NCBI GenBank assembly: GCA_963695185.1
Contig: CAVOGH010000002.1
Location: 193,216 to 257,215, forward strand
Length of the DNA: 64,000 bases
Reading direction: 5' to 3'
DNA from: an uncultured Gemmatimonadales bacterium
GTDB taxonomy: Bacteria; Gemmatimonadota; Gemmatimonadetes; Gemmatimonadales; GWC2-71-9
Shown here: positions 1,098 to 64,000 of the stretch, one piece after another
Layout of the letters: each line of letters begins with the position of its first letter
Position numbering within the stretch: the first letter of the stretch is position 1
Made by a program: the position numbers and the translations under genes
The notes under the pieces: generated by a model
Databases searched by the model: none
Told to the model about the DNA's origin: nothing
Seen by the model: the letters and a program-made list of their open reading frames with translations, nothing else

Positions 1098-1201
1098 GGC
1101 GAAGGGCAACCAGGGTTCCGCGTCGGCCGTCGGGCCGCAAGGGACAGGTGAGACCGCCTAGCGGCGCCTCCGGCCTCGCTCCACCCCGGATGCCCGTCGC
1201 C
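1098..1201 (+). repeat. Structured intergenic element, copy C (34-nt conserved core 1133-1166 enclosed by inverted repeat 1098-1108/1191-1201)
   Basis: Hand alignment with the copies at 62591-62684 and 42697-42799. Core is GGCCGCAAGGGACAGGTGAGACCGCCTAGCGGCG; arms are GGCGAAGGGCA/TGCCCGTCGCC. Confidence 0.7.
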
Positions 1202-1221
1202 ACCTCGCGGATCGTCCCGAC

Positions 1222-1269
1222 CGTCTGACCGCCTGACCGCCTGACCGCCTGACCGCCTGACCGCCTGAA
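1222..1269 (+). repeat. 8-bp tandem repeat, six units (CGTCTGAC, CGCCTGAC x4, CGCCTGAA)
   Basis: Direct reading of ccgtctgaccgcctgaccgcctgaccgcctgaccgcctgaccgcctgaa. Lies 20 nt upstream of the DUF72 ATG. Confidence 0.9.
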
Positions 1270-1289
1270 CCTCGAAAGGACACCCCACA

Positions 1290-1985
1290 ATGCAAGTCCT
1301 CGCCGGCACCAGCGGCTGGTCGTTCAAGGAGTGGAAGGGCGGGTTCTATCCCAAGGGCCTGCCCGACGACCAGATGCTGACCAGCTACGCCAGCCGCCTG
1401 CCGACGGTGGAGGTGAACAACACGTTCTACCGGATGCCCAAGGAGAAGGTGCTGCTGGGGTGGGCGGAGGCGGTACCCGAGGGGTTCAAGTTCTCGGTCA
1501 AGGCGTCGCAGCGGATCACCCACCACGCCCGGCTCAAGGACGTGGCGGACAACCTGCAGTATTTCCTGCGGGTCTGTTCCTCACTGGGGGAGCGGCGCGG
1601 GCCATCGCTCTTTCAGCTTCCGCCCAACCTCAAGGCTGACCTGCCGCTCCTCACCGACTTCCTGGCGCTGCTGCCCCACGGCTGGCGGGCCACCATGGAG
1701 TTTCGTCACCCGACCTGGTTCACCGACCCGGTCTATGATGCGCTCCGCGCGAAGGACGTGGCCATGACCATCGCCGAGCAGGATGATTTCGAGGTCCCGG
1801 TGGTGGCCACGGCGACGTGGGGCTATCTCCGCCTGCATCGCTCCAGCTACGACGAGGCCCGGCTCAAGCACTGGGCGGCGGAGATCCGGAAACAGCCGTG
1901 GCAGGAGGCGTTCGTGTACTTCAAGCACGAGGGCGAGGGAAGCGGGCCGGAGGTGGCGGAGGCGTTTGGGCGATTGGGCGATTAG
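1290..1985 (+). CDS. DUF72 family protein (YecE-like)
   Basis: MQVLAGTSGWSFKEWKGGFYPKGLP...YASRLPTVEVNNTFYRMP matches the DUF72 N-terminal signature. The last residues (GRLGD*) are encoded by the octamer array. Confidence 0.85.
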   Translation: MQVLAGTSGWSFKEWKGGFYPKGLPDDQMLTSYASRLPTVEVNNTFYRMPKEKVLLGWAEAVPEGFKFSVKASQRITHHARLKDVADNLQYFLRVCSSLGERRGPSLFQLPPNLKADLPLLTDFLALLPHGWRATMEFRHPTWFTDPVYDALRAKDVAMTIAEQDDFEVPVVATATWGYLRLHRSSYDEARLKHWAAEIRKQPWQEAFVYFKHEGEGSGPEVAEAFGRLGD

Positions 1986-2009
1986 GCGATTGGGCGATTG
2001 GGCGATTGA
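1962..2009 (+). repeat. 8-bp tandem repeat, six units (GCGTTTGG, GCGATTGG, GCGATTAG, GCGATTGG x2, GCGATTGA), overlapping the DUF72 stop
   Basis: Direct reading. The TAG stop at 1983-1985 lies inside unit 3. Confidence 0.9.
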
Positions 2010-2026
2010 TGGGGGGGGGCGCTCCG

Positions 2027-12237: not shown

Positions 12238-12705
12238 ATGTCACTCCGCGAGCTGAGAGAGTACCTCGACGAGCAGCAGGTCGAGTACGATATCATCACC
12301 CATTTGCCGTCTCATACCGCGCAGGAGACGGCGGCCGCCGCCCATGTGCCGGGCCAGGAGATGGCCAAGACGGTGATGGTCAAGGTTGATGGGGAGATGA
12401 CGATGCTGGTGCTGCCGGCGTCGATGAAGGTGGACTTCGGCCGGTTGCTGGACGCCACCGGCGCCCAGGACGTCGAGCTGGCCCAGGAGCACGAGTTCCG
12501 CGACCTCTTTCCCGACTGCGAACTGGGCGCGATGCCGCCCTTCGGCAATCTCTTCGGCCTGCCCACGATGGTCGCCGAGGAACTGACCGAGGACGAGAAG
12601 ATCGCCTTCAGCGCCGGGACCACGACCGAAGTGATCCGGCTCGCCTACCGGGACTACGCCCGGCTGGTGTGGCCGCGGGTGCTGCCGTTCCGGATCACGG
12701 TGTAG
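12238..12705 (+). CDS. YbaK/EbsC-type aminoacyl-tRNA deacylase domain protein
   Basis: 155 aa with ...AKTVMVKVDGEMTMLVLPASMKVDF...LGAMPPFGNLFGLP, typical of YbaK-like domains. Confidence 0.7.
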   Translation: MSLRELREYLDEQQVEYDIITHLPSHTAQETAAAAHVPGQEMAKTVMVKVDGEMTMLVLPASMKVDFGRLLDATGAQDVELAQEHEFRDLFPDCELGAMPPFGNLFGLPTMVAEELTEDEKIAFSAGTTTEVIRLAYRDYARLVWPRVLPFRITV

Positions 12706-12706
12706 G

Positions 12707-12741
12707 GGTTAGGCGGTTAGGCGATTAGGCGATTAGGCGAT
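12707..12741 (+). repeat. 8-bp tandem repeat, four units (GGTTAGGC x2, GATTAGGC x2), immediately after the TAG stop
   Basis: Direct reading: tag g ggttaggc ggttaggc gattaggc gattaggc gat. Confidence 0.9.
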
Positions 12742-13062
12742 CCGCTGAGCCGAGGGTAGCGAGGGCCTCGCTTGGGCGGCAGCGGGCAGCGTCACCCGAG
12801 GCGCTTCAGTCCGCGGCCGCCAGACGGGAAAACCGCCGGTTGGAGCGGGGGAAGTCCACGCCCATCCCCGAGCGCGCCCCAGCGGAGCCGGGCCGAGTAG
12901 AGCACCGCCGCGGTGCCCTCGGGCGTGACTAGGTCAAGGTACCACTCGTCCACCTGAAACATGGGGCGTCCCCCGTGCCTACGCTTTCTTCTCGCACGAA
13001 ACGTCACCTGCCCCCTGGGCCACCCATGAGGCCGGTGGTGCCGGAGGGTCGCCCGGCCCCTC

Positions 13063-18165: not shown

Positions 18166-18381
18166 CCGGTCGTCTCCATGGGTTCCAAGCTACCTGCCGG
18201 TGGGAATTCGGCCAGCGCGCTGGGAGGCCCAGCCCGCGGCGCGAAGCGATCCTCCCGTTGGCCCCGCTCCCCACCACTCCCTTACGGCCGGATGTTCCTG
18301 CCCGAGACCGGCGATCCATCATGACGGTTCTTCCCGTCCGGCTGCGCATAGCGGGGTGAACCCTCTCGAGGAGCACGACGG

Positions 18382-18622: not shown

Positions 18623-19510
18623 ATGTGGGATTTCATCACCGGGATCTTCACCCTCGTGCTGTGGATCGGCATTCCGCTGATCATCTTCGCGGCGTGGACC
18701 TACAACAAGCTGCAGCGGCAGGCACAGGATGTTCGTGAGGCGACCTCAAATGTCCAGGTGGCGGTCAGCAAGAAACTCAACCTCCTCAATCAGTTGATGG
18801 ATGTCGTGAAAAGCTACCAGGAAAGCGAGCAGTTCACCCACCTGAAGGTGTCGCAGGACAATTCCGCGGTGGCGCTGGCGGCCGCGTACCAGGAGTCGGG
18901 ATCCATGATGGCCACCATCCAGGGCATGGCCGATCGATTCCCCAATCTCAAGGCCAGCGAGCAGTATCATCGGCTGACCGACAGCATCCAGCACTGCGAG
19001 ATGGACATCCAGCGGACCCGCGAGCTCTACAATGGCACCGTCAAGGGCTACAACAACGCCTATCTCAAATTCCCCACCGTGCTGGTGGCGCCTGTGCTGG
19101 GCTTCTCCAAGGCACCGTACCTGGAGTTCGACGTGTCGGGGAACATCGACGCCACCGCGCTCAAGTCCTTCCAGACCGACGACGGTGCGCGGCTCAAGCA
19201 GCTCCTGGCCGGCGCCGGGGGATCCATCGCCGGGGCGACCCGGGCGCTGGCGGGCGGGGCGGGCCAGGCCGGGAAGATGATCGCCAGCCACGCCGGCCAG
19301 GCGGGCAAGCTCATCGCCGCCAAGGTGGCGGAGCAGCAGGCCCAGAACGGGGCGACCTACTTCTACCTGCCCAAGGGCGGCGTGCCCCGGGGTCCGGTAC
19401 CGCTGCCCACCGTCCGTGAACTGATCCAGCGGGGCGAACTCGAACCCGACGTGATGGTGGCCCGCACCGGCTCGGAGGACTGGCAGCCGATGTCGGCGGT
19501 GGAGGGGTAG
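18623..19510 (+). CDS. lemA: LemA family protein with C-terminal GYF_2-like domain
   Basis: N-terminal TM plus YNKLQRQAQDVREATSNVQVAVSKKLNLLNQLMDVVKSY (LemA-like). C-terminal YFYLPKGGVPRGPVPLPTVRELIQRGELEPDVMVARTGSEDWQPM. Confidence 0.75.
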   Translation: MWDFITGIFTLVLWIGIPLIIFAAWTYNKLQRQAQDVREATSNVQVAVSKKLNLLNQLMDVVKSYQESEQFTHLKVSQDNSAVALAAAYQESGSMMATIQGMADRFPNLKASEQYHRLTDSIQHCEMDIQRTRELYNGTVKGYNNAYLKFPTVLVAPVLGFSKAPYLEFDVSGNIDATALKSFQTDDGARLKQLLAGAGGSIAGATRALAGGAGQAGKMIASHAGQAGKLIAAKVAEQQAQNGATYFYLPKGGVPRGPVPLPTVRELIQRGELEPDVMVARTGSEDWQPMSAVEG

Positions 19511-19555
19511 CAGGCGATTGGGCGAGTAGGCGAGTAGGCGATTGGGCGATTCGCG
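19511..19555 (+). repeat. 8-bp tandem repeat, five units (CAGGCGAT, TGGGCGAG, TAGGCGAG, TAGGCGAT, TGGGCGAT), directly after the lemA TAG; 19527-19555 is the left arm of a 29-bp inverted repeat
   Basis: Direct reading. Confidence 0.9.
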
Positions 19556-19622
19556 AGCGTCTGAGAATGGGCGCGGAGAACTACCACGGTGGCTCTTCCC
19601 GGCACCGTACTCCAACTCCCAG

Positions 19623-19651
19623 CGCGAATCGCCCAATCGCCTACTCGCCTA
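19623..19651 (-). repeat. Octamer units on the minus strand (TAGGCGAG TAGGCGAT TGGGCGAT TCGCG); right arm of the 29-bp inverted repeat; first TAG is the helicase stop codon
   Basis: The reverse complement of 19623-19651 is identical to 19527-19555. Confidence 0.9.
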
Positions 19652-22555
19652 TATCAACCCCATCTCCCACAGGTACATCGCCTCCCCGCTCTCCACTCCG
19701 CGGCGGCGCTCGGCCCGGGTCAGCACCAGCCGGTCGCGGGCCCGGGTCATGCCGACATAGAGCAGCCGGCGGCCGTCCTCGATGTCAGCCTTGCTGGGCC
19801 GCTTCCCGGGTTGGGCCCCGGGAAGCTGGCCGTCTTCTACCCCCACCACATACACCCGGGAGAACTCGAGCCCCTTGGTGGCATGCAGGGTGAGCAGGTT
19901 CACCCGGTCATCACTCACCTCGGCGCCGGCGGTGGAGGTGGAGAGTGCCACCCGGGCCAGGAACTCACCCAGCTGGGCCTGGAGGTCCTCGCCGGTGAGG
20001 GAGCTGAGCAGGCTCGCCAGCCGGGCCATGGTGGCGGGATAGCGGTCATTGGCGGTCTTCTCCCGCTGAATGGCCGCCATGAGCTTCCGTCCGCCCAGCC
20101 GCTCGATGAGCTGCTCGACGTCGGGCGTCTCGCCGGCACCGGGCTCGCTCCGCTCCGCTTCATAGGATGAGAGCGCCCGGGTGTAGCGCCCCAGCGCGAA
20201 GATCCGGCCGGCATCGAACAGCATCCGGTCTTCGTTGGCCTGCTCACCGAGCGGGGTGAGCGCCAGCGCCACGGCGAGGTGATCCAGCATGTTGCCCAGG
20301 CTGATGGTTCGGGCCCGCTTGAGCCGCTCCTCCTCCAGCTTGAAGACCACCCGCGCCAGGGTACGGCAGTCGTCGAGGGCGCGGTGGGCCCGACCGGTAT
20401 CGATGCCGAAGGCCTGGGCGAGGTCACCGAGCCGGGCGCTGCCGCGGTGGACGTCGCGGGCCAGCGGCAGGGTGTCGTAGCAGGCGGAAGTGAGCCCGGC
20501 TCCGGCCTGCTCGGCCAGGCGGCGGAGTACCGGGAAGTCGAAGTCGTGCCCGTTGTGGGCCACCAGCTGGTCGTCCCCGGCAAAGGCGCGGAACTCCCGC
20601 CACACCGCTTCGAACGGCGGCGCCGTGGCGACCTCTGCATCGCCGATCCCGTGGACCCGTTGGGCGGCCGGGCTGATCGGCCGGGTCGGCTGCACCAGCC
20701 GCTGGAATTCCTCGACCAGTTCCCCGCCCCGCACCCGCACCCCCGCCAGCTCCACCACCTCCGAGCGGCTCCGGTCGAACTCGTTGGTCTCGACATCCAC
20801 CGCCACGAAGTCGGTCAGCGACGAGCGCAGCCCGCGGCCCTCGATGGCCTGGAGCGCCTTGAAAAGCGTCCCCGCCAGGCTGAGCGCACCGCGGTCCTCG
20901 GGGCGGATGATCTCGTCCTCCGGATGGGGACGGGCGCCTTCATCGAGGTAGCCGATCATCGTCACCCCGGCGCCCCGAAGCATCCCGGCGATGCCAAGCG
21001 CCGCCCCGCCCACCCGCGGCAGCCAGACGCGCTTGCGGCCGTGGCGGGCGGCCGCGAGCCGGGTGGCGAGTGCCGCGGCGGCGGGATCGGCGAGCGGGTC
21101 GCTGAGCAGCGACTCCTCGTACCTCTCCTCCAGCGGGGTGCGGGTCGGGCCCACGCGATGGGAGAGCAGCTCCTCCACCAGCGGTGGCAGGGTGGCGAAG
21201 CGGTCCCTCGTGCTGGGAAGGTTGGCGAGGTTGGTCAGGCAGCGGAGGATCCGCTTGCCGTCCACGTCGGGGTTGCCGCGGACCCGCTTGCCCTCGCGGG
21301 CCAGCCACTCGGGAAACTCGACCTTCTTCCGTTCAGCCCCTGCCCGGAGCGTCCCCATGAGCGGCCGGGGGAGCTGCGCCGCGGCGAACTGTTCGACGAA
21401 CACCGGATCATCGGGCCGGTGAATCACCCGCAGGGCAGCGATGAGGTAGCCCACCACCGGGTCGTCGGCGAGGGCGCGGCCGGTGGCGAGCTGGCAGGGG
21501 ATGCCGGCCTCCACCAGGCGCGACTCCAGCAGGTCTCCGGTCTCGTGGCGGCGGTAGAGCAGCGCCACCTCGCCCCAGTGGTGCTGGTGGTCCGCCCGGT
21601 CCCGCTGCATGTCCTCGATGAGCCAGCTGGCCTCCGCGTCCTCGTCGGCAAAGGTCTGGGCGGTAACCTCCCACTCCGACTCCCGCAGGGCGCGCAGCTC
21701 CTTGTGATGGTCGCGGGGGTTGAGGGCGATGAGCCGCCGGGCGGCCTGAAAGATCTGCCGCGAACAGCGCCGGTTCTCATCGAGGATGATCGGCTGGGTG
21801 ATGCCGTGGTCGTTGAGATACCGGGTGAGCACCGTGGAGTCGGCACCGGCAAAGCCGAAGATGGACTGCTCGTCGTCTCCCACCACGAAGCTGTTGCGGT
21901 GACCCGCGGCCAGGCGGGAGAGTACTTCGTACTGTCCCGTGGTGAGGTCCTGGGCCTCGTCGATGAGCAGGTAGTCCCAGCGCGCGGCAATCGCCTGGGC
22001 GGTCGATTCCCGGGTGCGCAGGAGGAGCTCGGTGTTGGCGATCAGGTCGTCGAAGTCCAGCAGACTCCGCTTGGCCAGGTGGGCGCGGTAGCGCTCGTAG
22101 ATAGGGGTGAGCCAGTCGCCCAGCGGATCGCCCTGGAGCCGGTGCCGGCTGAAGCGGGTGAGGGGCCACTTCCCTTCCTTGTAGAACCCCGAGCGGCGGA
22201 GGGTCTGGAGCTGGTACTCCTCGTCGGCGATGCCGAAGCCGCGGGGGACGCCGACCTCCTCGCCGTACGCGCGCAGCAGCTCGACGCAGAGCGCGTGGAT
22301 GGTGCCGCGATGGATTCCCTCGGCCCGGTCTCCCAGAGCGGCGGCGAGGCGGGCGGCGATCTCGCCGGCGGCGCGGTTGGTGAAGGTCACCGCCACGATG
22401 CGTGACGGCTCGAAGCCCAGCTCCTCGATCAGGTAGCGGATGCGCTGGATGAGGCAGAACGTCTTCCCGGCCCCGGGCCCGGCCAGGACCAGCACCGGAC
22501 CGAGTGGCGCGGCGATGGCCTGCGCCTGGGCCGCAGAGGGGACGATGGTGGCCAC
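19649..22555 (-). CDS. UvrD/PcrA-family helicase with an embedded DEDDh (DnaQ-like) 3'-5' exonuclease domain
   Basis: Helicase motifs AGPGAGKT, LLIDEAQDLT, VVGDDEQSIFGFAGA, TLHATKGLEF, LLYVGMTRARDRL. Between motifs IV and V lies an exonuclease module: VAVDVETNE, GIGDAEV, LVAHNGHDFDFPVL, HRALDDC. Confidence 0.85.
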   Translation of the reverse strand: MATIVPSAAQAQAIAAPLGPVLVLAGPGAGKTFCLIQRIRYLIEELGFEPSRIVAVTFTNRAAGEIAARLAAALGDRAEGIHRGTIHALCVELLRAYGEEVGVPRGFGIADEEYQLQTLRRSGFYKEGKWPLTRFSRHRLQGDPLGDWLTPIYERYRAHLAKRSLLDFDDLIANTELLLRTRESTAQAIAARWDYLLIDEAQDLTTGQYEVLSRLAAGHRNSFVVGDDEQSIFGFAGADSTVLTRYLNDHGITQPIILDENRRCSRQIFQAARRLIALNPRDHHKELRALRESEWEVTAQTFADEDAEASWLIEDMQRDRADHQHHWGEVALLYRRHETGDLLESRLVEAGIPCQLATGRALADDPVVGYLIAALRVIHRPDDPVFVEQFAAAQLPRPLMGTLRAGAERKKVEFPEWLAREGKRVRGNPDVDGKRILRCLTNLANLPSTRDRFATLPPLVEELLSHRVGPTRTPLEERYEESLLSDPLADPAAAALATRLAAARHGRKRVWLPRVGGAALGIAGMLRGAGVTMIGYLDEGARPHPEDEIIRPEDRGALSLAGTLFKALQAIEGRGLRSSLTDFVAVDVETNEFDRSRSEVVELAGVRVRGGELVEEFQRLVQPTRPISPAAQRVHGIGDAEVATAPPFEAVWREFRAFAGDDQLVAHNGHDFDFPVLRRLAEQAGAGLTSACYDTLPLARDVHRGSARLGDLAQAFGIDTGRAHRALDDCRTLARVVFKLEEERLKRARTISLGNMLDHLAVALALTPLGEQANEDRMLFDAGRIFALGRYTRALSSYEAERSEPGAGETPDVEQLIERLGGRKLMAAIQREKTANDRYPATMARLASLLSSLTGEDLQAQLGEFLARVALSTSTAGAEVSDDRVNLLTLHATKGLEFSRVYVVGVEDGQLPGAQPGKRPSKADIEDGRRLLYVGMTRARDRLVLTRAERRRGVESGEAMYLWEMGLI

Positions 22556-41965: not shown

Positions 41966-42670
41966 ATGCCCGTCCAGAAAGACCTCAAGCGCCTGATCCG
42001 CGCCCGCATGCAGAAGACCGGCGAGGCCTATACCGCGGCCCGCCGCCAACTCCTCTCCCGCAAGCCGAATTCCTCGCCCGTCACGGCGTCGCTGGCCGCG
42101 GCCTCACCCGCGCCCGCCGACTTCGCCCGCCTCGCCGGCATGAGCGACTCGGCGGTCAAGGCCAAGACCGGCTGCGATTGGGGGCGCTGGGTCTATGCCC
42201 TCGACCGCGCCGGTGCATCGGCGTGGTCCCATCGCGAAATCGCGGCGCATGTGCAGAAGTCCTACAAGCTTCCCGGCTGGTGGAGCCAGACCGTGACGGT
42301 GGGTTACGAGCGCATCAAGGGGTTGCGCGCCATCGGGCAGCGCCGCGATGGCGGCTTCGAGGCCAGCAAGAGCAAGACCTTCCAGCTGCCGGTCTCCAAA
42401 CTCTACCGCGCCTTTCGCGACGCCCGGCTCCGGGGCCGATGGCTGCCGGATGCGGCCCCCACGGTCCGGACAGCCACGAAGGACAAGTCGCTCCGGCTCA
42501 CCTGGCCCGACGGTACCCGGGTGGAGGCCAACTTTTCTTCCAAGGGACGCGGCAGGGCCCAGGTGCAGCTGCAGCACGGAGTGTTCGCGGACAAGGCGTC
42601 CGCGACCCGGGCGAAGAAGCTCTGGGAGGAGCGGCTGAAGGAGCTGGAGCGCTGGAGCGCGACGGGATAG
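41966..42670 (+). CDS. Hypothetical protein (DUF4287-like N-terminal region plus SRPBCC-like C-terminal half)
   Basis: MSDSAVKAKTGCDWGRWVYALD...WSHREIAAHV...GWWSQTVTVGYERIKG. The stop TAG is part of a TAGGCGAG octamer unit. Confidence 0.5.
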   Translation: MPVQKDLKRLIRARMQKTGEAYTAARRQLLSRKPNSSPVTASLAAASPAPADFARLAGMSDSAVKAKTGCDWGRWVYALDRAGASAWSHREIAAHVQKSYKLPGWWSQTVTVGYERIKGLRAIGQRRDGGFEASKSKTFQLPVSKLYRAFRDARLRGRWLPDAAPTVRTATKDKSLRLTWPDGTRVEANFSSKGRGRAQVQLQHGVFADKASATRAKKLWEERLKELERWSATG

Positions 42671-42696
42671 GCGAGCGGCCACAGAGCACAGGGGGA

Positions 42697-42799
42697 GCAA
42701 GCGCCCTTGCGCGCAGCGAGGAGGATACCCGCGCCGCTGGGCGATCTCACCGATCCCTTGCGGCCGGGTCTCCGACGAGACGTGCGCAGGGGCGCTTGC
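42697..42799 (-). repeat. Structured intergenic element, copy A (core at 42732-42765 on the minus strand), 70 nt downstream of the gdh stop
   Basis: Minus-strand core GGCCGCAAGGGATCGGTGAGATCGCCCAGCGGCG; arms GCAAGCGCCCCTGCGC/GCGCAAGGGCGCTTGC (15 of 16 paired). Confidence 0.7.
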
Positions 42800-42869
42800 C
42801 CTCACCTCGGCTGATCGCCGGGTTCCCATCGCCCTCGCACACGGAGCGTCGCGTCGCCGAAGCGCCGCC

Positions 42870-50164: not shown

Positions 50165-52864
50165 ATGCCTCCTGCCCCGCAGCTTTCCGCCGCCCTGTCC
50201 GACCGCTACCGCATCGAGCGTGAACTCGGTGCTGGCGGCATGGCCACCGTCTACCTGGCCCTGGACCTCCGGCACGACCGGCGGGTCGCGCTCAAGGTGC
50301 TCCGGCCCGAACTGGCCGCCATACTCGGCGGTGAGCGGTTCCTGCAGGAGATCAAGACCACCGCGAACCTGCAACACCCCCACATCCTGCCGCTGCACGA
50401 TTCCGGCGAGGCCGGCGGACAGGTGTTCTACGTCATGCCGTACGTCGAGGGCGAGAGCCTGCGCGACCGGCTGAACCGCGAAAAGCAGCTGCCGGTGGAA
50501 GACGCGATCCGCATTGCCCGGGAGGTAGCCGACGCCCTGCACTACGCCCACCTGCACGGGATCATCCACCGCGACATCAAGCCCGAGAACATCCTGCTGC
50601 ACGGCGGCCACGCCCAGGTGGCCGACTTCGGCATCGCCGTCGCCGCCGTGCGCTCCGAAGGCGACACCCGGCTCACCGAGACCGGCATGTCGCTCGGCAC
50701 GCCCCACTACATGAGCCCGGAGCAGGCCATGGGCGGGCGGGACATCGACGCCCGCACCGATGTGTATGCCCTGGGCTGTGTGCTGTACGAGATGCTGACC
50801 GGAGAGCCCCCCTTCACCGGTCCGACGGCGCAGGCGATCATCGCCCGGGTCATGACCGAGACACCGCGCTCGCTGGCGTCCCAGCGTCCCACCGTGCCGC
50901 CGCATATCGATGCCGCCGTGCGCACCGCGCTGCAGAAGCTGCCGGCAGACCGTTTCGCGAGCGCGGGACAGCTGCTCGATGCACTGAACCGGCCCGAGTA
51001 CGCGACCCTCGCCGTCGAGGCAGTCGCGGTCTCCGGTTCAACACCCATCGCCATGACGCGACGCCTGAACCGGGTGCTGCCGTGGGGAGTCGCCGCCGCG
51101 GCCGCCGCGTTTGGGATCTTCGAGTGGCAGACACGGCTGCATGCGAGCAACCTGGTCCCGTCCCGGCTGGCGATGCTCACCCCCAGCCTGACCAGTTCCG
51201 GCATCACCTCGCTGCGGCGCCAGCTCGCACTCACCCCCGATGGCCGGTCGGTGATCTTCACCTCGGTGAGCGACGAGGGAGGATTGCAGCTGGCCCGCCA
51301 GGAGCTCGACGCGGCGACACCACGCCTGATCCCCACCCGGAGCGATGGCGAGGTGAGCGATCGGCAGAGCGGGCTGACCAATTTTGTGATCTCGGGGGAC
51401 GGGCGCTGGCTGGTGGCCCAGACCCTGAGCGCCACGGTGCTGCGATTCCCCATCGAGGGGGGAACCGGAGCGCGCCTCCCCTTGCAGGCGTCGGGTTTCG
51501 CGGTGTTTGACGGGAAGGGCAATCTCTGGTCGGACGCCGGTGCCGAGCGCAGCCAGAAGGGGTACCTGGTACGGCTCGGCGCCGGCGACTCCCTGACGCG
51601 GGAGTTGGCCGGCAAGGTCGGGGCGGATCAGCTCATGCAGATCCTGCCCGACGGCCGCACCGCGATCACCATGCTGCGCCCGCCGGGCACGTTCTCCGCG
51701 CCGAGCCGTCTGGTGGATCTGGTCACCGGTGACACCACGCCGCTGATGGCGACCCCGGCGGTCGAGGTCCGCTACACCTCCGGCCTGCTGGTGTACGTGC
51801 TGGGCGACGGCACCATGATGGCGGCCCCGTTCGACCCGAAGCGACGCCGCCTCACCGGGAACGCGGTCACCGTCGCGACCGGAGTCTCGCTCACCGGGAC
51901 CGGCATTGCCCAGATGGCGGTGGCGCCCAACGGCACCGTGGCATACATCCCGGAGGAACCGCGCTGGCTGGTGCTGGTGGATCGGTCGGGAGCGGTCCGT
52001 CCGCTGCTGACGGAGCGCCATAGCTATCACGCGCCGGTGTTCTCGCCCGACGGCCGCCGGCTGTCTGTTGACCTGACCGACGCCGAGGGGCGTGATGTCC
52101 GAGTGCTGAATCTGGGCGAGCGGACCCTGACGCGCGCCACTTTCGACCGCGACGGCCACGACGCCACCTGGACGCCGGACGGGCAGTTCCTGACCTACAA
52201 CTCGTTCAAGTCCGGGGTGCTGGGCATCTACCGCACCCGGCCGGGCCGGGCGGAGCCGGCCGAATCGCTGCTGGCGTCGGGGGCGCTCGGCTACACCGGG
52301 TACTGGCTGCCTGACGGCAGCGGGCTGGTCACGGCCGCCCAGAGGCTGAACGAGCAATCGGGATCCGATATCGCCCTGGTGACCAACGGCGGCCGCGGGC
52401 CGCTGGAGCCGCTGGCGGCGAGCCGCTTCGCCGAGAGCCATCCGGCGGTGTCGCCCGACGGCCGGTGGCTGGCCTATGCCTCCGACCAGTCGAACGAGCT
52501 GGAGGTCTACGTGCGTCCGCTGGGCCGGGATGGCGACCTGGTGCAGGTGTCGCGGGGCGGAGGCACCGAGCCGCTGTGGAGCCGGGACGGACGGGAGCTG
52601 TTCTACCGCGGAATGGTGGACGACCAGCCGCAGTTGATCGCCACGAGCGTGCGGACCGCGCCGTCGTTCTCGGTGACCGCCCGCCGCCCGCTGTTTCCGG
52701 TGGCCGACATGGTGACCGCCACACCGCACCGCAACTACGACATCACTCCCGACGGGCGCTCATTCGTGATGGTGCAGCGCAGTCCCGGCACCCGGATCAT
52801 GATCATCCAGAATCTGCCGGCGCTGGTAGCCCGGCTGCGGGGTGGAGCCGGCGAGTCGCGGTAG
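50165..52864 (+). CDS. Ser/Thr protein kinase with TM segment and C-terminal PD40/TolB-like beta-propeller region
   Basis: GAGGMATVYLA, VALKVL, HRDIKPENILL, DFGIA, GTPHYMSPEQ, then repeated ...SPDGR.../...TPDGQ... propeller-like segments. Confidence 0.9.
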   Translation: MPPAPQLSAALSDRYRIERELGAGGMATVYLALDLRHDRRVALKVLRPELAAILGGERFLQEIKTTANLQHPHILPLHDSGEAGGQVFYVMPYVEGESLRDRLNREKQLPVEDAIRIAREVADALHYAHLHGIIHRDIKPENILLHGGHAQVADFGIAVAAVRSEGDTRLTETGMSLGTPHYMSPEQAMGGRDIDARTDVYALGCVLYEMLTGEPPFTGPTAQAIIARVMTETPRSLASQRPTVPPHIDAAVRTALQKLPADRFASAGQLLDALNRPEYATLAVEAVAVSGSTPIAMTRRLNRVLPWGVAAAAAAFGIFEWQTRLHASNLVPSRLAMLTPSLTSSGITSLRRQLALTPDGRSVIFTSVSDEGGLQLARQELDAATPRLIPTRSDGEVSDRQSGLTNFVISGDGRWLVAQTLSATVLRFPIEGGTGARLPLQASGFAVFDGKGNLWSDAGAERSQKGYLVRLGAGDSLTRELAGKVGADQLMQILPDGRTAITMLRPPGTFSAPSRLVDLVTGDTTPLMATPAVEVRYTSGLLVYVLGDGTMMAAPFDPKRRRLTGNAVTVATGVSLTGTGIAQMAVAPNGTVAYIPEEPRWLVLVDRSGAVRPLLTERHSYHAPVFSPDGRRLSVDLTDAEGRDVRVLNLGERTLTRATFDRDGHDATWTPDGQFLTYNSFKSGVLGIYRTRPGRAEPAESLLASGALGYTGYWLPDGSGLVTAAQRLNEQSGSDIALVTNGGRGPLEPLAASRFAESHPAVSPDGRWLAYASDQSNELEVYVRPLGRDGDLVQVSRGGGTEPLWSRDGRELFYRGMVDDQPQLIATSVRTAPSFSVTARRPLFPVADMVTATPHRNYDITPDGRSFVMVQRSPGTRIMIIQNLPALVARLRGGAGESR

Positions 52865-55974: not shown

Positions 55975-56618
55975 CCCCTGCACTCGCGCCCCACGCCGGC
56001 CAGCCGGTGCTCCTGGCCGGCGCATCGCTGGCAGAAGCCCGCCTGGCCGTGATCCTGATCCACGGCCGGGGGGCCGGGCCCCGAAACATCATGGACCTGG
56101 CGCCGTCTATTGATCACCCCGACGCGGCTTACCTGGCTCCAGCCGCCCAGGGCGGCACCTGGTACCCCCAGACCTTCATGGCGCCCATGGCGCAGAATGA
56201 ACCCGGCATCAGCTCCGGCATCTCGGTGATCCACGGATTGATGGACGAGGTCATCGCCGCGGGGATTCCCGCGGAGCGGATCGTGCTGCTGGGCTTCTCA
56301 CAGGGCGCCTGCCTGGCCTCGACCGCGGCGCACCGGCGGCCCATGCGTTACGGCGGGGTGATCGCCTTCTCCGGCGGGCTCATCGGCCCGCCGGAAACCA
56401 GGTGGGACGAGACCGGTGACTTCCGCGCCACGCCGGTGTTTCTGGGTTGCAGCGACCAGGATGCCCACGTCCCGGCCTCGCGGGTACGGGAAAGTGAGGC
56501 GGTGTTCCGCCGGATGAAGGCCGAGGTCACCGCCCGGATCTACCCCGGCATGGGACACCTCGTGAACGAAGACGAGATCCGGTTTGCGAAGGAGTTGATG
56601 GGGCGGTTGGGCGGTTAG
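55971..56618 (+). CDS. Alpha/beta hydrolase (phospholipase/carboxylesterase type)
   Basis: LIHGRGAG, nucleophile elbow GFSQGA, and GCSDQDAHVP...GMGHLV. ATGA overlap with the dioxygenase. The C-terminus GRLGG* is encoded by the octamer array. Confidence 0.8.
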   Translation: MTPALAPHAGQPVLLAGASLAEARLAVILIHGRGAGPRNIMDLAPSIDHPDAAYLAPAAQGGTWYPQTFMAPMAQNEPGISSGISVIHGLMDEVIAAGIPAERIVLLGFSQGACLASTAAHRRPMRYGGVIAFSGGLIGPPETRWDETGDFRATPVFLGCSDQDAHVPASRVRESEAVFRRMKAEVTARIYPGMGHLVNEDEIRFAKELMGRLGG

Positions 56619-56630
56619 GCGATTGGCGAC
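56601..56630 (+). repeat. 8-bp tandem repeat (GGGCGGTT x2, AGGCGATT, GGCGAC) overlapping the hydrolase stop codon
   Basis: Direct reading. TAG at 56616-56618 lies inside the array. Confidence 0.85.
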
Positions 56631-62590: not shown

Positions 62591-62684
62591 GGCTCCTGCG
62601 CGCGACTTGTCGGACACCTCGGCCGCAAGGGATTGGTGAGATCGCTTAGCGGCGTGGGCGTCCTCCTCGCTGCGCGCAGGAGCC
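62591..62684 (+). repeat. Structured intergenic element, copy B (core 62621-62654; perfect 13-bp closing stem 62591-62603/62672-62684)
   Basis: Core GGCCGCAAGGGATTGGTGAGATCGCTTAGCGGCG; arms GGCTCCTGCGCGC/GCGCGCAGGAGCC. Confidence 0.75.
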
Positions 62685-62704
62685 ACCGGCCCGCTTGGAC
62701 CAGC

Positions 62705-62720
62705 GAATCGCCCAATCGCC
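62705..62720 (-). repeat. Two octamer units (minus strand reads GGCGATTGGGCGATTC), 20 nt after element B
   Basis: Plus strand reads gaatcgcccaatcgcc. Confidence 0.8.
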
Positions 62721-62763: not shown

Positions 62764-64000
62764 ATGCCCACTCCCCAGCAACTCTCCCAGGCCCTCGCCG
62801 ACCGCTACCGCATCGAGCGGGAGCTGGGCCAGGGGGGCATGGCGACGGTGTACCTGGCGCACGACGTCCGTCACGACCGCAAGGTGGCCCTCAAGGTGCT
62901 CCGCCCCGAGCTGGCCGCGATCCTCGGCGCCGAGCGCTTCCTGGCCGAGATCAAGACCACCGCCAATCTGCAGCATCCCCACATCCTGAGCCTGTTCGAC
63001 TCGGGCGAAGCGGGCGGGCAGGTGTTCTACGTGATGCCCTACGTGGAGGGCGAGTCGCTGCGCGACCGCCTGGCCCGGGAGCATCAGCTGCCGGTGGAGG
63101 AGGCGGTGCGGATCGCCCGGGAGATCGCCGACGCGCTGCACTACGCCCACGGCCACGGCGTCATCCACCGCGATATCAAGCCCGAGAACATCCTGCTCCA
63201 CGGCGGACACGCCCAGGTGGCCGACTTCGGCATCGCCCTGGCCGTGAGCCGGAGCGACGGCGGCACCCGCATGACCGAGACCGGCATGTCGCTCGGCACC
63301 CCGCACTACATGGCGCCCGAACAGGCCATGGGAGAACGGGAGATCACCGCCGGCGCCGACATCTACGCGCTCGGATGCGTGGTCTACGAGATGCTCACCG
63401 GCGACCCACCCTTCACCGGCTCGACCGCGCAGGCGATCGTGGCCCGGGTGGTGACCGAGAACCCGCGGCCCATGACCGCCCAGCGACGCACCATTCCGGC
63501 CCACGTCGAGGCGGCGGTGCTGACCGCACTGGAGAAGCTGCCGGCGGATCGCTTCGCCAGCGCGGCGGCCTTCGCGGAGGCGCTGGGGAATCCGGGGTTC
63601 GCCAGGCCTGGTGGCTACGCAGCGGCAGCCGCCGGTGGCGCGGGCATCCGCTCCGCCCGCACCCGCACCCTCGTGACGGCAGGCGCCGTCGGGGTGCTCA
63701 CCCTGCTGGCCGCGTGGGGCTGGTTGCGGCCCCGGCCCGACGCACCCAGGCCGGTGGTGCGCTACGAGCTGGGCCAGGCCGATGCCGAGCGGTTCCTGCC
63801 GGGGTCCGACATCGTCCGCCTGGCCATCTCCTCCGATGGGAACCGCCTGGCGTATGTCGGACCGGCGCAGAGCGGCACCCAGCTCTGGCTCCGGGAACGC
63901 AACCAGTTGCGCGCGACGCCGATCCCCAGCACCGACAACGCCCGCAACCCGGCCTTCTCGCCCACCGGGGGGCAACTGGCGTTCTTCGACGGAGCACGCA
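62764..64000 (+). CDS. Ser/Thr protein kinase paralogue with TM and PD40/TolB-like region; 3' end outside window (not in the supplied ORF track)
   Basis: I translated this by hand. It reads MPTPQQLSQALADRYRIERELGQGGMATVYLAHDVRHDRKVALKVL...HRDIKPENILLHGGHAQVADFGIA...GTPHYMAPEQ. That is followed by a TM (VTAGAVGVLTLLAAWGW) and then ...ISSDGNRLAYV...AFSPTGGQLAF. No stop occurs before position 64000. Confidence 0.85.
   Translation, partial: MPTPQQLSQALADRYRIERELGQGGMATVYLAHDVRHDRKVALKVLRPELAAILGAERFLAEIKTTANLQHPHILSLFDSGEAGGQVFYVMPYVEGESLRDRLAREHQLPVEEAVRIAREIADALHYAHGHGVIHRDIKPENILLHGGHAQVADFGIALAVSRSDGGTRMTETGMSLGTPHYMAPEQAMGEREITAGADIYALGCVVYEMLTGDPPFTGSTAQAIVARVVTENPRPMTAQRRTIPAHVEAAVLTALEKLPADRFASAAAFAEALGNPGFARPGGYAAAAAGGAGIRSARTRTLVTAGAVGVLTLLAAWGWLRPRPDAPRPVVRYELGQADAERFLPGSDIVRLAISSDGNRLAYVGPAQSGTQLWLRERNQLRATPIPSTDNARNPAFSPTGGQLAFFDGAR

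Follow-up and report, generated by a model that had tools for sequence, protein, structure and literature searches.

A non-coding element of about 100 nucleotides (nt) occurs three times in a 64,000-nt stretch of contig CAVOGH010000002.1, from an uncultured Gemmatimonadales bacterium (positions 193,216 to 257,215 of the forward strand; hereafter the window), and raises the question of what kind of sequence keeps its centre nearly constant while its two ends vary together. A preliminary description of the three intergenic copies had reported a 34-nt core enclosed by an inverted repeat that differs between copies and stays self-complementary, and had considered a structured RNA of the 3'-untranslated region (3'-UTR), a mobile sequence resembling repetitive extragenic palindromes (REPs) or MITEs (miniature inverted-repeat transposable elements), and a protein-binding module. 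Comparison with related genomes has shown that copies of this palindrome are gained, lost, inverted, nested and arranged in tandem between relatives, with arms that stay strictly complementary, and that the apex and an internal loop are under strong constraint. A family of non-autonomous mobile palindromic DNA repeats, similar to REPs, MITEs and bacterial interspersed mosaic elements (BIMEs), is considered a moderately probable explanation.

The three copies have been delimited as follows. Copy C lies on the forward strand at 1098-1201, with arms at 1098-1108 and 1191-1201 that are complementary at 10 of 11 positions, and folding predicts that its pairing reaches approximately 1090-1208. Its 34-nt apex core (GGCCGCAAGGGACAGGTGAGACCGCCTAGCGGCG, 1133-1166, forward strand) is matched by the core pattern, and a covariance model built from 19 copies of the family matches this copy at 1103-1197 (72.5 bits, E 3e-17). 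In copy B (forward strand, 62591-62684), all 13 positions of the outer arms, 62591-62603 and 62672-62684, are complementary; a second-tier stem pairs GGACACC (62612-62618) with GGGCGTCC (62656-62663), and the alignment shows two conserved unpaired motifs, ACTTGTC at 62605-62611 and TCCTCGCT at 62664-62671. The core pattern matches this copy at 62621-62654 and the covariance model scores it at 90.9 bits. It is followed at 62685-62720 by an unpaired right tail (..CGCTTGGACCAGCGA) and two octamer units (ATCGCCCAATCGCC); the tail is homologous to those of the nested copies described below, its form being recognisable at 62685-62706. Copy A, on the reverse strand at 42698-42799, has arms at 42799-42784 and 42713-42698 (15 of 16 positions complementary), a pattern-matched core at 42732-42765 and a covariance-model score of 89.4 bits. 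It stands between the convergent gdh gene and a gene of 234 amino acids, where the predicted pairing extends over approximately 42650-42850, nearly the whole intergenic region; comparison with a related locus, L007, places its right tail and degenerate octamer-like units (TCCCCCTGTGCTCTGTGG CCGCTCGCCTATCCCGTCGCGC) at 42650-42697 on the same strand.

Cores, arms and coordinates of the three copies agree with the preliminary description, as do the pairwise core differences of 3-4 in 34 positions. The core pattern has three matches in the window against 0.00 expected from 100 dinucleotide-preserving shuffles, and a covariance-model scan of the whole window with filters off returned these three as the only true copies. 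Each folds into one long hairpin on either strand, with energies of -67 to -72 kcal/mol (z -2.2 to -5.9) on the copies' own strand and -72 to -78 kcal/mol (z -5.1 to -8.0) on the opposite strand.

Beyond the window, an exact-pattern scan with 20 specified core bases, made over one genome per species, gave 22 loci (loci from other sequences are here numbered with the prefix L). Three metagenome-assembled genomes (MAGs) of Gemmatimonadales, two named 'uncultured Gemmatimonadaceae' and one 'Gemmatimonadales bacterium STL-GEM5', account for 21 of them; the 22nd, L004 in a 'Massilia' MAG, was rejected as a chance match to the 20 specified bases, its flanks being unrelated. With the covariance model, 28 copies were matched at E <= 2.5e-13 in approximately 190 kb from three Gemmatimonadales MAGs, so that many further copies in relatives have been found by pattern and model alike. 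Divergent copies were also met in two more genomes, in loci fetched around gdh homologues: one at L146 24-118 (core CGCCGCAAGGGAACGGGGAGTCCGCCGAGCGGCG, 59.7 bits) and two at L156. A strict exact-match pattern biases sampling towards an invariant apex, and the divergent copies show that the apex is able to change, partly with compensation. As far as sampled, the distribution is confined to Gemmatimonadales. No match to the element was found in viral contigs, plasmids or phages, and when metagenomes were scanned with a permissive pattern in which the apex was unspecified, the matches listed were mostly chance ones in coding sequence and none of them had a true apex. These permissive-pattern loci (L023-L142) were set aside as irrelevant chance matches, L064 perhaps excepted. 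In this soil metagenome contig, a core-like GGCCGCAAGGG...GCGGC with a different centre, at approximately 2700-2790, has CTCTCGTCGGAC upstream and TCCTCGCCGC downstream; it is a chance match to the permissive pattern without a covariance-model score, yet it could be a distant relative.

The preliminary description recognised no described family, and this has been borne out from two sides: a search of Rfam with the whole window gave no match at the gathering score and, in E-value mode, a single chance microRNA match (E 1.6), while a full-text search of the literature returned no description of such repeats in Gemmatimonadetes. Two observations concern the assemblies in which the family was sampled. 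A stretch of 2.76 kb is 99.6% identical on two contigs of the STL-GEM5 MAG (L020 1-2756 and L021 5245-8000) and holds an element copy between two paralogous outer-membrane-like genes, a repeat that is either a real duplication or assembly redundancy. Several MAG contigs (L010-L013, L018) end inside the element.

A copy consists of a hairpin of approximately 95-130 bp, or approximately 150-210 bp including tail and flanks; the ends were read by eye, as internal loops defeat arm-against-arm local alignment. The near-invariant 34-nt apex is an imperfect hairpin, GCCGC-AAG-G-GATC / GGTGA / GATC-G-CTT-A-GCGGC, which hardly changes even from STL-GEM5 to the genomes of Gemmatimonadaceae. The second-tier stem measures 5-8 bp and has a copy-specific sequence, examples being GGACACC/GGGTGTCC, GGAGAGTG/CACTCTCC, GGCCG/CGGCC and AACGGGCG/CGCCCGTT. 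Gemmatimonadaceae copies have a conserved, non-complementary internal loop with two pyrimidine-rich sides (5', ..TCTCGTC..; 3', ..TCCTCGC..), and its two motifs are related as a direct and not as an inverted repeat. In the outer stem, the inner part (..CTGCGCGC) is common to many copies and the outer part is copy-specific, which indicates that divergence rises with distance from the apex. On the right side follows an unpaired tail of approximately 20 nt whose pattern is TGGnTTGGACCA-N5-7-GAAGG(A) or close to it. The copies of STL-GEM5 are near-perfect hairpins with stems of 45-50 bp, each with different arms.

The covarying stems noted in the window have proved statistically strong in a test on 27 distinct aligned copies, where the alignment was fitted to the model and the counts lean towards structure. 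Paired cells amount to 92.3%, compared with 74.7% +/- 1.2 when partners were shuffled and 38-53% when they were slid by 1-3 columns. Double-change cells number 100, compared with 36.7 +/- 4.4 in the shuffles, none of which (0 of 500) reached the observed value. An RNAalifold analysis based on a MAFFT alignment agrees, with double changes in 12 of 23 pairs. The manner of change is also distinctive. Among the twelve pairs that vary on both sides, 11 are without any cell in which one side alone has changed, a class that includes the passage from G-C to G-U; the sole exception is pair 35/71, with 5 U-G cells. Arm-against-arm mismatches in 21 distinct copies comprise 28 G:T and 25 A:C, set against 888 Watson-Crick pairs. 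The lack of G-U intermediates, together with the equality of G:T and A:C, argues against an RNA read from one strand. The pattern fits a palindrome maintained at the DNA level, or one whose folding is needed in both transcripts.

Turnover between related genomes is seen as a series of states at the gdh locus. In addition to window copy A, the element is present in L007 in the same orientation, with many arm substitutions on both sides and flanks that are 88% identical at the DNA level. The same flanking genes in L008 enclose a copy of a different sub-type (GGAGAGTG stem), with different arms and in the opposite orientation. A divergent copy lies between inverted octamer arrays in L156, where the whole 290-nt spacer forms one palindrome, and in L146 the stop codon is followed only by (GACGGTCG)n octamers. 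No element and no trace of either arm is found in L143 and L144, where the convergent genes are 7 nt apart and the gdh protein is 93% identical; L145, L148 and L154 are likewise compact and without the element. A second pair of filled and empty sites is provided by L006, in which an insertion of approximately 185-190 bp, absent in the orthologous L002, corresponds to a complete second copy with arms and flanks. Neither arm is found at the empty sites, which shows that the arms move together with the element. Two further origins were rejected on the grounds that empty sites are without arms and nested copies bring their own, namely the insertion of a small core into the loops of pre-existing host terminator hairpins and the derivation of the outer arms from fold-back copying of local flanking DNA.

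Copies have also been found within copies. Complete elements with their own arms and tail occupy the apex of other copies at eight loci in two MAGs, amounting to at least 12 nested layers, all oriented like the host copy and up to three or more deep. In the clearest case, a module designated M1 is intact in L008 and L012, where ..GCAAGGGATYGGT is directly followed by GAGATCGC... The same module is interrupted in L010 and L011, where ..GCAAGGG is joined to TGCCGG..., 215-290 nt follow, and ...CCCTG or CCGAAG is then joined to GAGATCGC..; this insert replaces 6 nt, ATCGGT. Other nests have the insert in place of the 9 nt GATCGGTGA between both GATC motifs. On the right, the junction hardly varies and falls just before (GA)GATCGC or GCGC, and the left junction is variable, falling after AAGC, AAGG, AAGGG or AAGGGATCG. 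An 'onion' at L013 1980-2480 (reverse strand), with at least three identical left-arm units of 52 nt, an N-masked centre of approximately 100 nt and at least four right-arm units of 66-68 nt, is one element nested repeatedly in its own apex. Tandem copies occur at L015 1983-2411 (reverse strand), where three copies of one sub-type are 149 and 185 nt apart and (GACCGCCT)6 stands between the second and third.

The octamer arrays that accompany the element are widespread in these genomes, with 29 period-8 arrays in 292 kb of Gemmatimonadaceae DNA, whose units include GGCGATTR, GGCGGTTN, GACGGTCN and GTCTGYCC. The preliminary description had octamer units following all three window copies. This is clear after copy C, where a tail of approximately 15 nt is followed by a tandem array of about six GACCGCCT units (1217-1271, forward strand), and weak after the other two, with two AATCGCC units after copy B and one or two degenerate units after copy A. 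An array lies within approximately 100 nt at no fewer than 11 of about 25 element loci, and is usually C-rich and 3' of the tail. The 3' half of the core (GATCGCTT or GACCGCCT) resembles the C-rich unit (AATCGCCT or GACCGCCT), and in 3 of 14 adjacent pairs the neighbouring array has exactly the core 8-mer as its unit, compared with 7 of 885 non-adjacent ones. Exact matches are found in window copy C, whose core (1133-1166) carries in its 3' half the very unit of the array at 1217-1271, in L015 2021-2291 and in L017 1993-2138; these cores have GACCGCCT instead of GATCGCTT. Window copy C and L014 belong to one sub-type, and the difference between their cores exactly mirrors the difference between their arrays. 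The identity of core and array suggests either an exchange of sequence between array and apex or the seeding of arrays from the apex. A single rule, insertion 5' of an octamer-like unit, would account for landing at both arrays and apices, as the apex carries such a unit and would itself be a target. An exception to the rule is the second copy in L006, which is reversed.

Arrays also occur apart from the hairpin. Five in the window (1960-2010, 12705-12744, 19513-19551, 19627-19651 on the other strand, and 56601-56624) are without it, and each of them begins either at a stop codon or immediately behind one, its G-rich strand running in the gene's sense direction. Such arrays have also been seen at L146 11419-11471 and L007 5593-5631. 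The units of these arrays at stop codons are GGCGATTR, GGCGGTTA and GACGGTCG, and two of all the arrays listed contain the stop codon. The literature searched holds no description of octamer arrays at stop codons. At 19513-19651 in the window, two inverted arrays approximately 75 nt apart, with no hairpin element between them, separate the convergent genes 18623-19510 (forward strand) and 19649-22555 (reverse strand), and a long hairpin is expected in either transcript.

As regards gene context, the window copies are flanked by genes for a MerR protein with tetratricopeptide repeats (MerR+TPR), DUF72 and DUF779 proteins, a Ser/Thr kinase and glutamate dehydrogenase. The upstream neighbours named earlier (MerR+TPR, DUF779 and glutamate dehydrogenase) are correct, as are the distances from stop codon to arm of 58 nt for copy C, 81 nt for copy B and 70 nt for copy A. 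A fixed position and orientation relative to genes, part of the preliminary description, applies to these three copies and does not extend to the family: about 10 copies are oriented like the upstream gene and 5 against it, as judged with a crude gene caller, and some copies precede genes or are antisense to the gene upstream of them. Scans with promoter and terminator consensus sequences gave no site at the three window loci, and no T run follows the arms of the window copies. An intrinsic (Rho-independent) terminator was therefore ruled out, there being no U-tract after the hairpin and an empty terminator scan at all three loci.

Some further features of the surroundings have been recorded. 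A G-rich heptamer repeat (GGTGCGT, 2.3 units, 1078-1093) adjoins the 5' side of copy C and joins its extended predicted pairing. Ser/Thr kinases that are paralogous and very alike at the N-terminus are found repeatedly near copies (window 62764-64000 and 50165-52864; L001, L003, L005, L007 and L013), and in window B, L003 and L013 such a kinase is directly preceded by an element or nest, which in L013 has the opposite orientation; this proximity may simply reflect the abundance of the kinases. In a divergent intergenic region at 18234-18291 (reverse strand), a 5'-half-like GGCCGTAAGGGA is followed by 26 nt and a 3'-half-like GATCGCTTCGCGCCGC. This possible degenerate relic could be a former copy whose loop has been replaced, and its membership in the family is uncertain, the match being weak (14.3 bits, E 0.2) and restricted to the apex part of the model.

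If the element is mobile, a trans-encoded enzyme would copy or move it. Such an enzyme would be structure-specific and would recognise the folded, probably single-stranded, region of apex and internal loop, and the invariant apex is plausible as a predicted protein-binding module. Either only copies with pairing arms would be substrates, or the arms would be homogenised upon hairpin extrusion. A need for foldability in propagation, or the correction of extruded hairpins, would produce covariation without any function as RNA. Incoming copies would join the apical loop of resident ones in a fixed orientation, replacing the 6-9 nt between ..GCAAGG(G) and (GA)GATCGC.., and would also land beside C-rich octamer arrays that resemble the 3' half of the core; joining would be precise at the right junction and ragged at the left. 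Once resident, copies might serve secondarily as GC-rich hairpins at gene ends, possibly blocking transcription or stabilising the 3' ends of mRNA. A bolder version, in which the family is a self-targeting hairpin transposon that inserts into its own apical loop and beside 8-nt arrays by an enzymology new for the small repeats of bacteria, is thought unlikely. Were it true, the precise right junction, the ragged left one and the few nt of target lost would resemble one-ended, rolling-circle or target-primed copying more closely than cut-and-paste, the octamer arrays at gene ends would be landing pads or by-products, and the match between core 8-mer and array a footprint.

Several observations weigh against mobility. 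No transposase or recombinase stands next to any copy examined; the open reading frames beside the nests and the L020/L021 copy are ordinary genes (outer-membrane-like, decarboxylase-like, HflX-like and AAA ATPase). A tblastn search with RayT and IS200 TnpA, using probe sequences that were not taken from a database record, gave no homologue in approximately 300 kb of local sequence. No target-site duplication is visible in the two comparisons of filled and empty sites or in the apex insertions, clean cases being few, and no conserved terminal inverted repeat is visible. The copy number is modest, at tens per genome in a sampling biased by the exact-match pattern. The nests are confined to two MAGs co-assembled from short reads, with none in the window or in genomes with long contigs, and their layers do not always pair consistently (L003, L010, L011), a possible result of recombination or of assembly across the common 34-mer. 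Assembly mis-joins would not, however, create the junctions between half-core and left flank, as these share no k-mer. The junctions vary by a few nt and lose 6-9 nt, which is untidy for a classical transposase, and such ragged junctions could equally fit break repair or recombination at a hairpin tip. Lastly, strict Watson-Crick pairing would be expected just as much from selection on both transcripts of a bidirectional terminator.

This last point leads to an explanation in which the element is a gene-end module selected by the host, acting as a bidirectional terminator independent of a U-tract or as a barrier to 3' exonucleases, with an apex that binds a host protein and with spread chiefly by recombination or gene conversion as opposed to transposition. 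Such a module would account for the position of the window copies 58-81 nt after stop codons, for the placing of copy A, L007, L008 and L016 between convergent genes, for the strong folding of both strands and for the 290-nt intergenic region of L156, which is a single palindrome with inverted octamer arrays around the element. Selection on both strands would likewise predict the Watson-Crick strictness and the near equality of G:T and A:C, and an apex that is almost invariant across genera amid diverging surroundings is in keeping with a bound protein. The U-tract is nonetheless absent and the terminator scan empty, close relatives dispense with the element at the same gene pair with abutting genes, termination offers no obvious reason for tandem triplets and multi-layer nests, and some copies precede genes or run antisense to the gene upstream of them. 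Taken as the whole explanation, a host-selected module is on the unlikely side, though it deserves to be kept in mind. It does not exclude mobility, since the two readings are not mutually exclusive; the REPs of Escherichia coli are both a mobile type of repeat and a gene-end module.

Less room is left for the remaining two explanations. Repair of breaks at palindrome tips, in which nucleases of the SbcCD type would cleave the tips and ectopic copies would repair them through shared 34-mer cores with no dedicated transposition, agrees with apex junctions that vary by a few nt and always lose 6-9 nt of the loop, with the mismatched layers expected from recombination through a shared core, and with core 8-mers matching the neighbouring array, which suggest local gene conversion. 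Random capture would, however, give both orientations, and the nested layers, at least 12 in number, are all oriented like their hosts. Whole elements with tails also appear at sites without a core (L006 compared with L002, the gdh locus compared with L143), and half-core homology of 10-15 nt alone cannot make the junctions of half-core and left flank; repair alone is accordingly held to be improbable. A structured RNA, either borne on 3'-UTRs or produced as an independent small RNA, with loops that bind protein or RNA and stems that covary for the RNA fold, would be consistent with the conserved core, the compensating stems, the conserved unpaired motifs of the internal loop and the shared orientation of the window copies with their upstream genes. 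The internal loop read on the opposite strand is purine-rich (GACGAGA / AGCGAGGA) and would have the look common in RNA motifs. This proposal of the preliminary description has fared poorly: G-U intermediates are almost lacking with no excess of G:T on either strand, orientation is flipped at the orthologous gdh locus and mixed relative to genes across the family, close relatives differ by presence and absence, nesting destroys the apical loop of the host copy, and neither a promoter-like site at the window loci nor an Rfam match was found. It is now regarded as very improbable. The likeness to REPs and MITEs proposed alongside it has been strengthened by the further copies, the presence and absence of the element, the flip of orientation at an orthologous site, and the nests and tandems.

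Mobile palindromes of several kinds offer a comparison. Like the REPs of enterobacteria and pseudomonads, the element is an intergenic, GC-rich, imperfect palindrome often located at gene 3' ends and between convergent genes, with stems that differ among sub-families and retain their pairing, and like BIMEs it forms a mosaic with other short motifs, here hairpin, tail and octamer arrays. REPs are also known insertion targets of other mobile DNA (PMC1525189). The GTAG- and CGTC-tagged superfamilies of REPs are associated with a REP-associated tyrosine transposase (RAYT) (PMC3733652). The element described here is three to five times longer, however, at 95-130 nt in three stem tiers, compared with a palindrome of 20-40 nt with a 5-13-bp stem and a small loop (PMC3733652), and it conserves its apex, whereas REPs conserve the tag at the foot of the stem and the stem. 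In most Gemmatimonadaceae copies a look-alike of the CGTC tag (YGTCG/CGTC) immediately precedes the second-tier stem on its 5' side, and the four STL-GEM5 copies lack it; the stem that follows it does not begin with A/T, unlike in CGTC REPs, which have 8-9-bp stems starting with A/T and loops of 4-5 nt (PMC3733652). A RAYT gene flanked by repeats is a feature of REPs, and none was found here in approximately 300 kb with the probes described above; REPs occur in hundreds of copies, compared with apparently tens per genome here. Self-nesting at the loop, as seen here, is not described for REPs in the literature compared. A REP in the defined sense was ruled out by the length and by the conservation of the apex in place of a foot tag; the CGTC look-alike, absent in STL-GEM5 and followed by a stem of another kind, gives a less clear answer. 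Closer in size are the REPINs (REP doublets forming hairpins) of Pseudomonas, which are likewise single long hairpins of approximately 100 nt, non-autonomous, thought to move as a unit and kept as hairpins by compensation (PMC3116915). In REPINs, inverted conserved REPs form the stem and the loop or spacer is variable; here the apex is invariant, the arms vary and no flanking RAYT gene is seen.

The Correia/NEMIS (Neisseria miniature insertion sequence) elements of Neisseria and the ERIC/IRU (enterobacterial repetitive intergenic consensus/intergenic repeat unit) sequences resemble the element as non-coding, intergenic long hairpins of 100-170 bp with presence/absence polymorphism between strains, and ERIC copies with internal insertions are known. 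What defines MITEs is the combination of target-site duplications with terminal inverted repeats that are conserved from copy to copy; a MITE in this sense was ruled out, the outermost arms being the most divergent part and no parent insertion sequence (IS) being seen. The attC sites of integrons, among them the chromosomal VCR-type repeats, are imperfect palindromes of 60-140 nt after the stop codon, in the orientation of the gene, that are recombined as folded single strands and targeted by mobile elements. The element shares with them an imperfect palindrome just after the stop codon in gene orientation and is opposite in that attC ends are conserved and the centre variable. An integron attC was ruled out, as there are no R''/R' sites (RYYYAAC...GTTRRRY) at the ends and no cassette array; the window copies are 20-40 kb apart among housekeeping genes. 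Palindrome-associated elements derived from IS200/IS605 have two sub-terminal hairpins in direct orientation and insert 3' of a fixed tetra- or pentanucleotide with no loss of target, and this origin was ruled out by the single central hairpin, the 6-9 nt of target lost and the variable left junction. As for the octamer arrays alone, the short tandemly repeated repetitive (STRR) sequences of cyanobacteria are heptamer arrays, and the arrays here resemble them in being short and tandem, with units of 7-8 nt, in being dispersed between genes and in having several unit variants in a genome. They differ in phylum and in units (GGCGATTR, GGCGGTYN, GACGGTCN), and many of them, unlike STRR sequences, start at stop codons with the G-rich strand in the sense direction and are associated with the hairpin element.

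Gemmatimonadales are abundant in soil and freshwater and have few cultured members, and no description of their repeat content was found in the literature searched. The element is of a known kind, that of palindromic intergenic repeats such as REPs, BIMEs, REPINs and MITEs, with an unusual architecture and behaviour: the centre is conserved and the ends are free, the internal loop is both conserved and asymmetric, copies nest in one another in a specific orientation, and there is a coupling to octamer arrays. In this layout, the usual plan of bacterial palindromic repeats is inverted, the centre being conserved and the ends free. There are practical consequences, as the repeat breaks short-read assemblies of these genomes and yields strong false-positive signals of covarying RNA in comparative screens. 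The family also offers a natural system for the recognition and joining of hairpin DNA in vivo, for arm complementarity maintained without selection on RNA, and for the shaping of gene ends.

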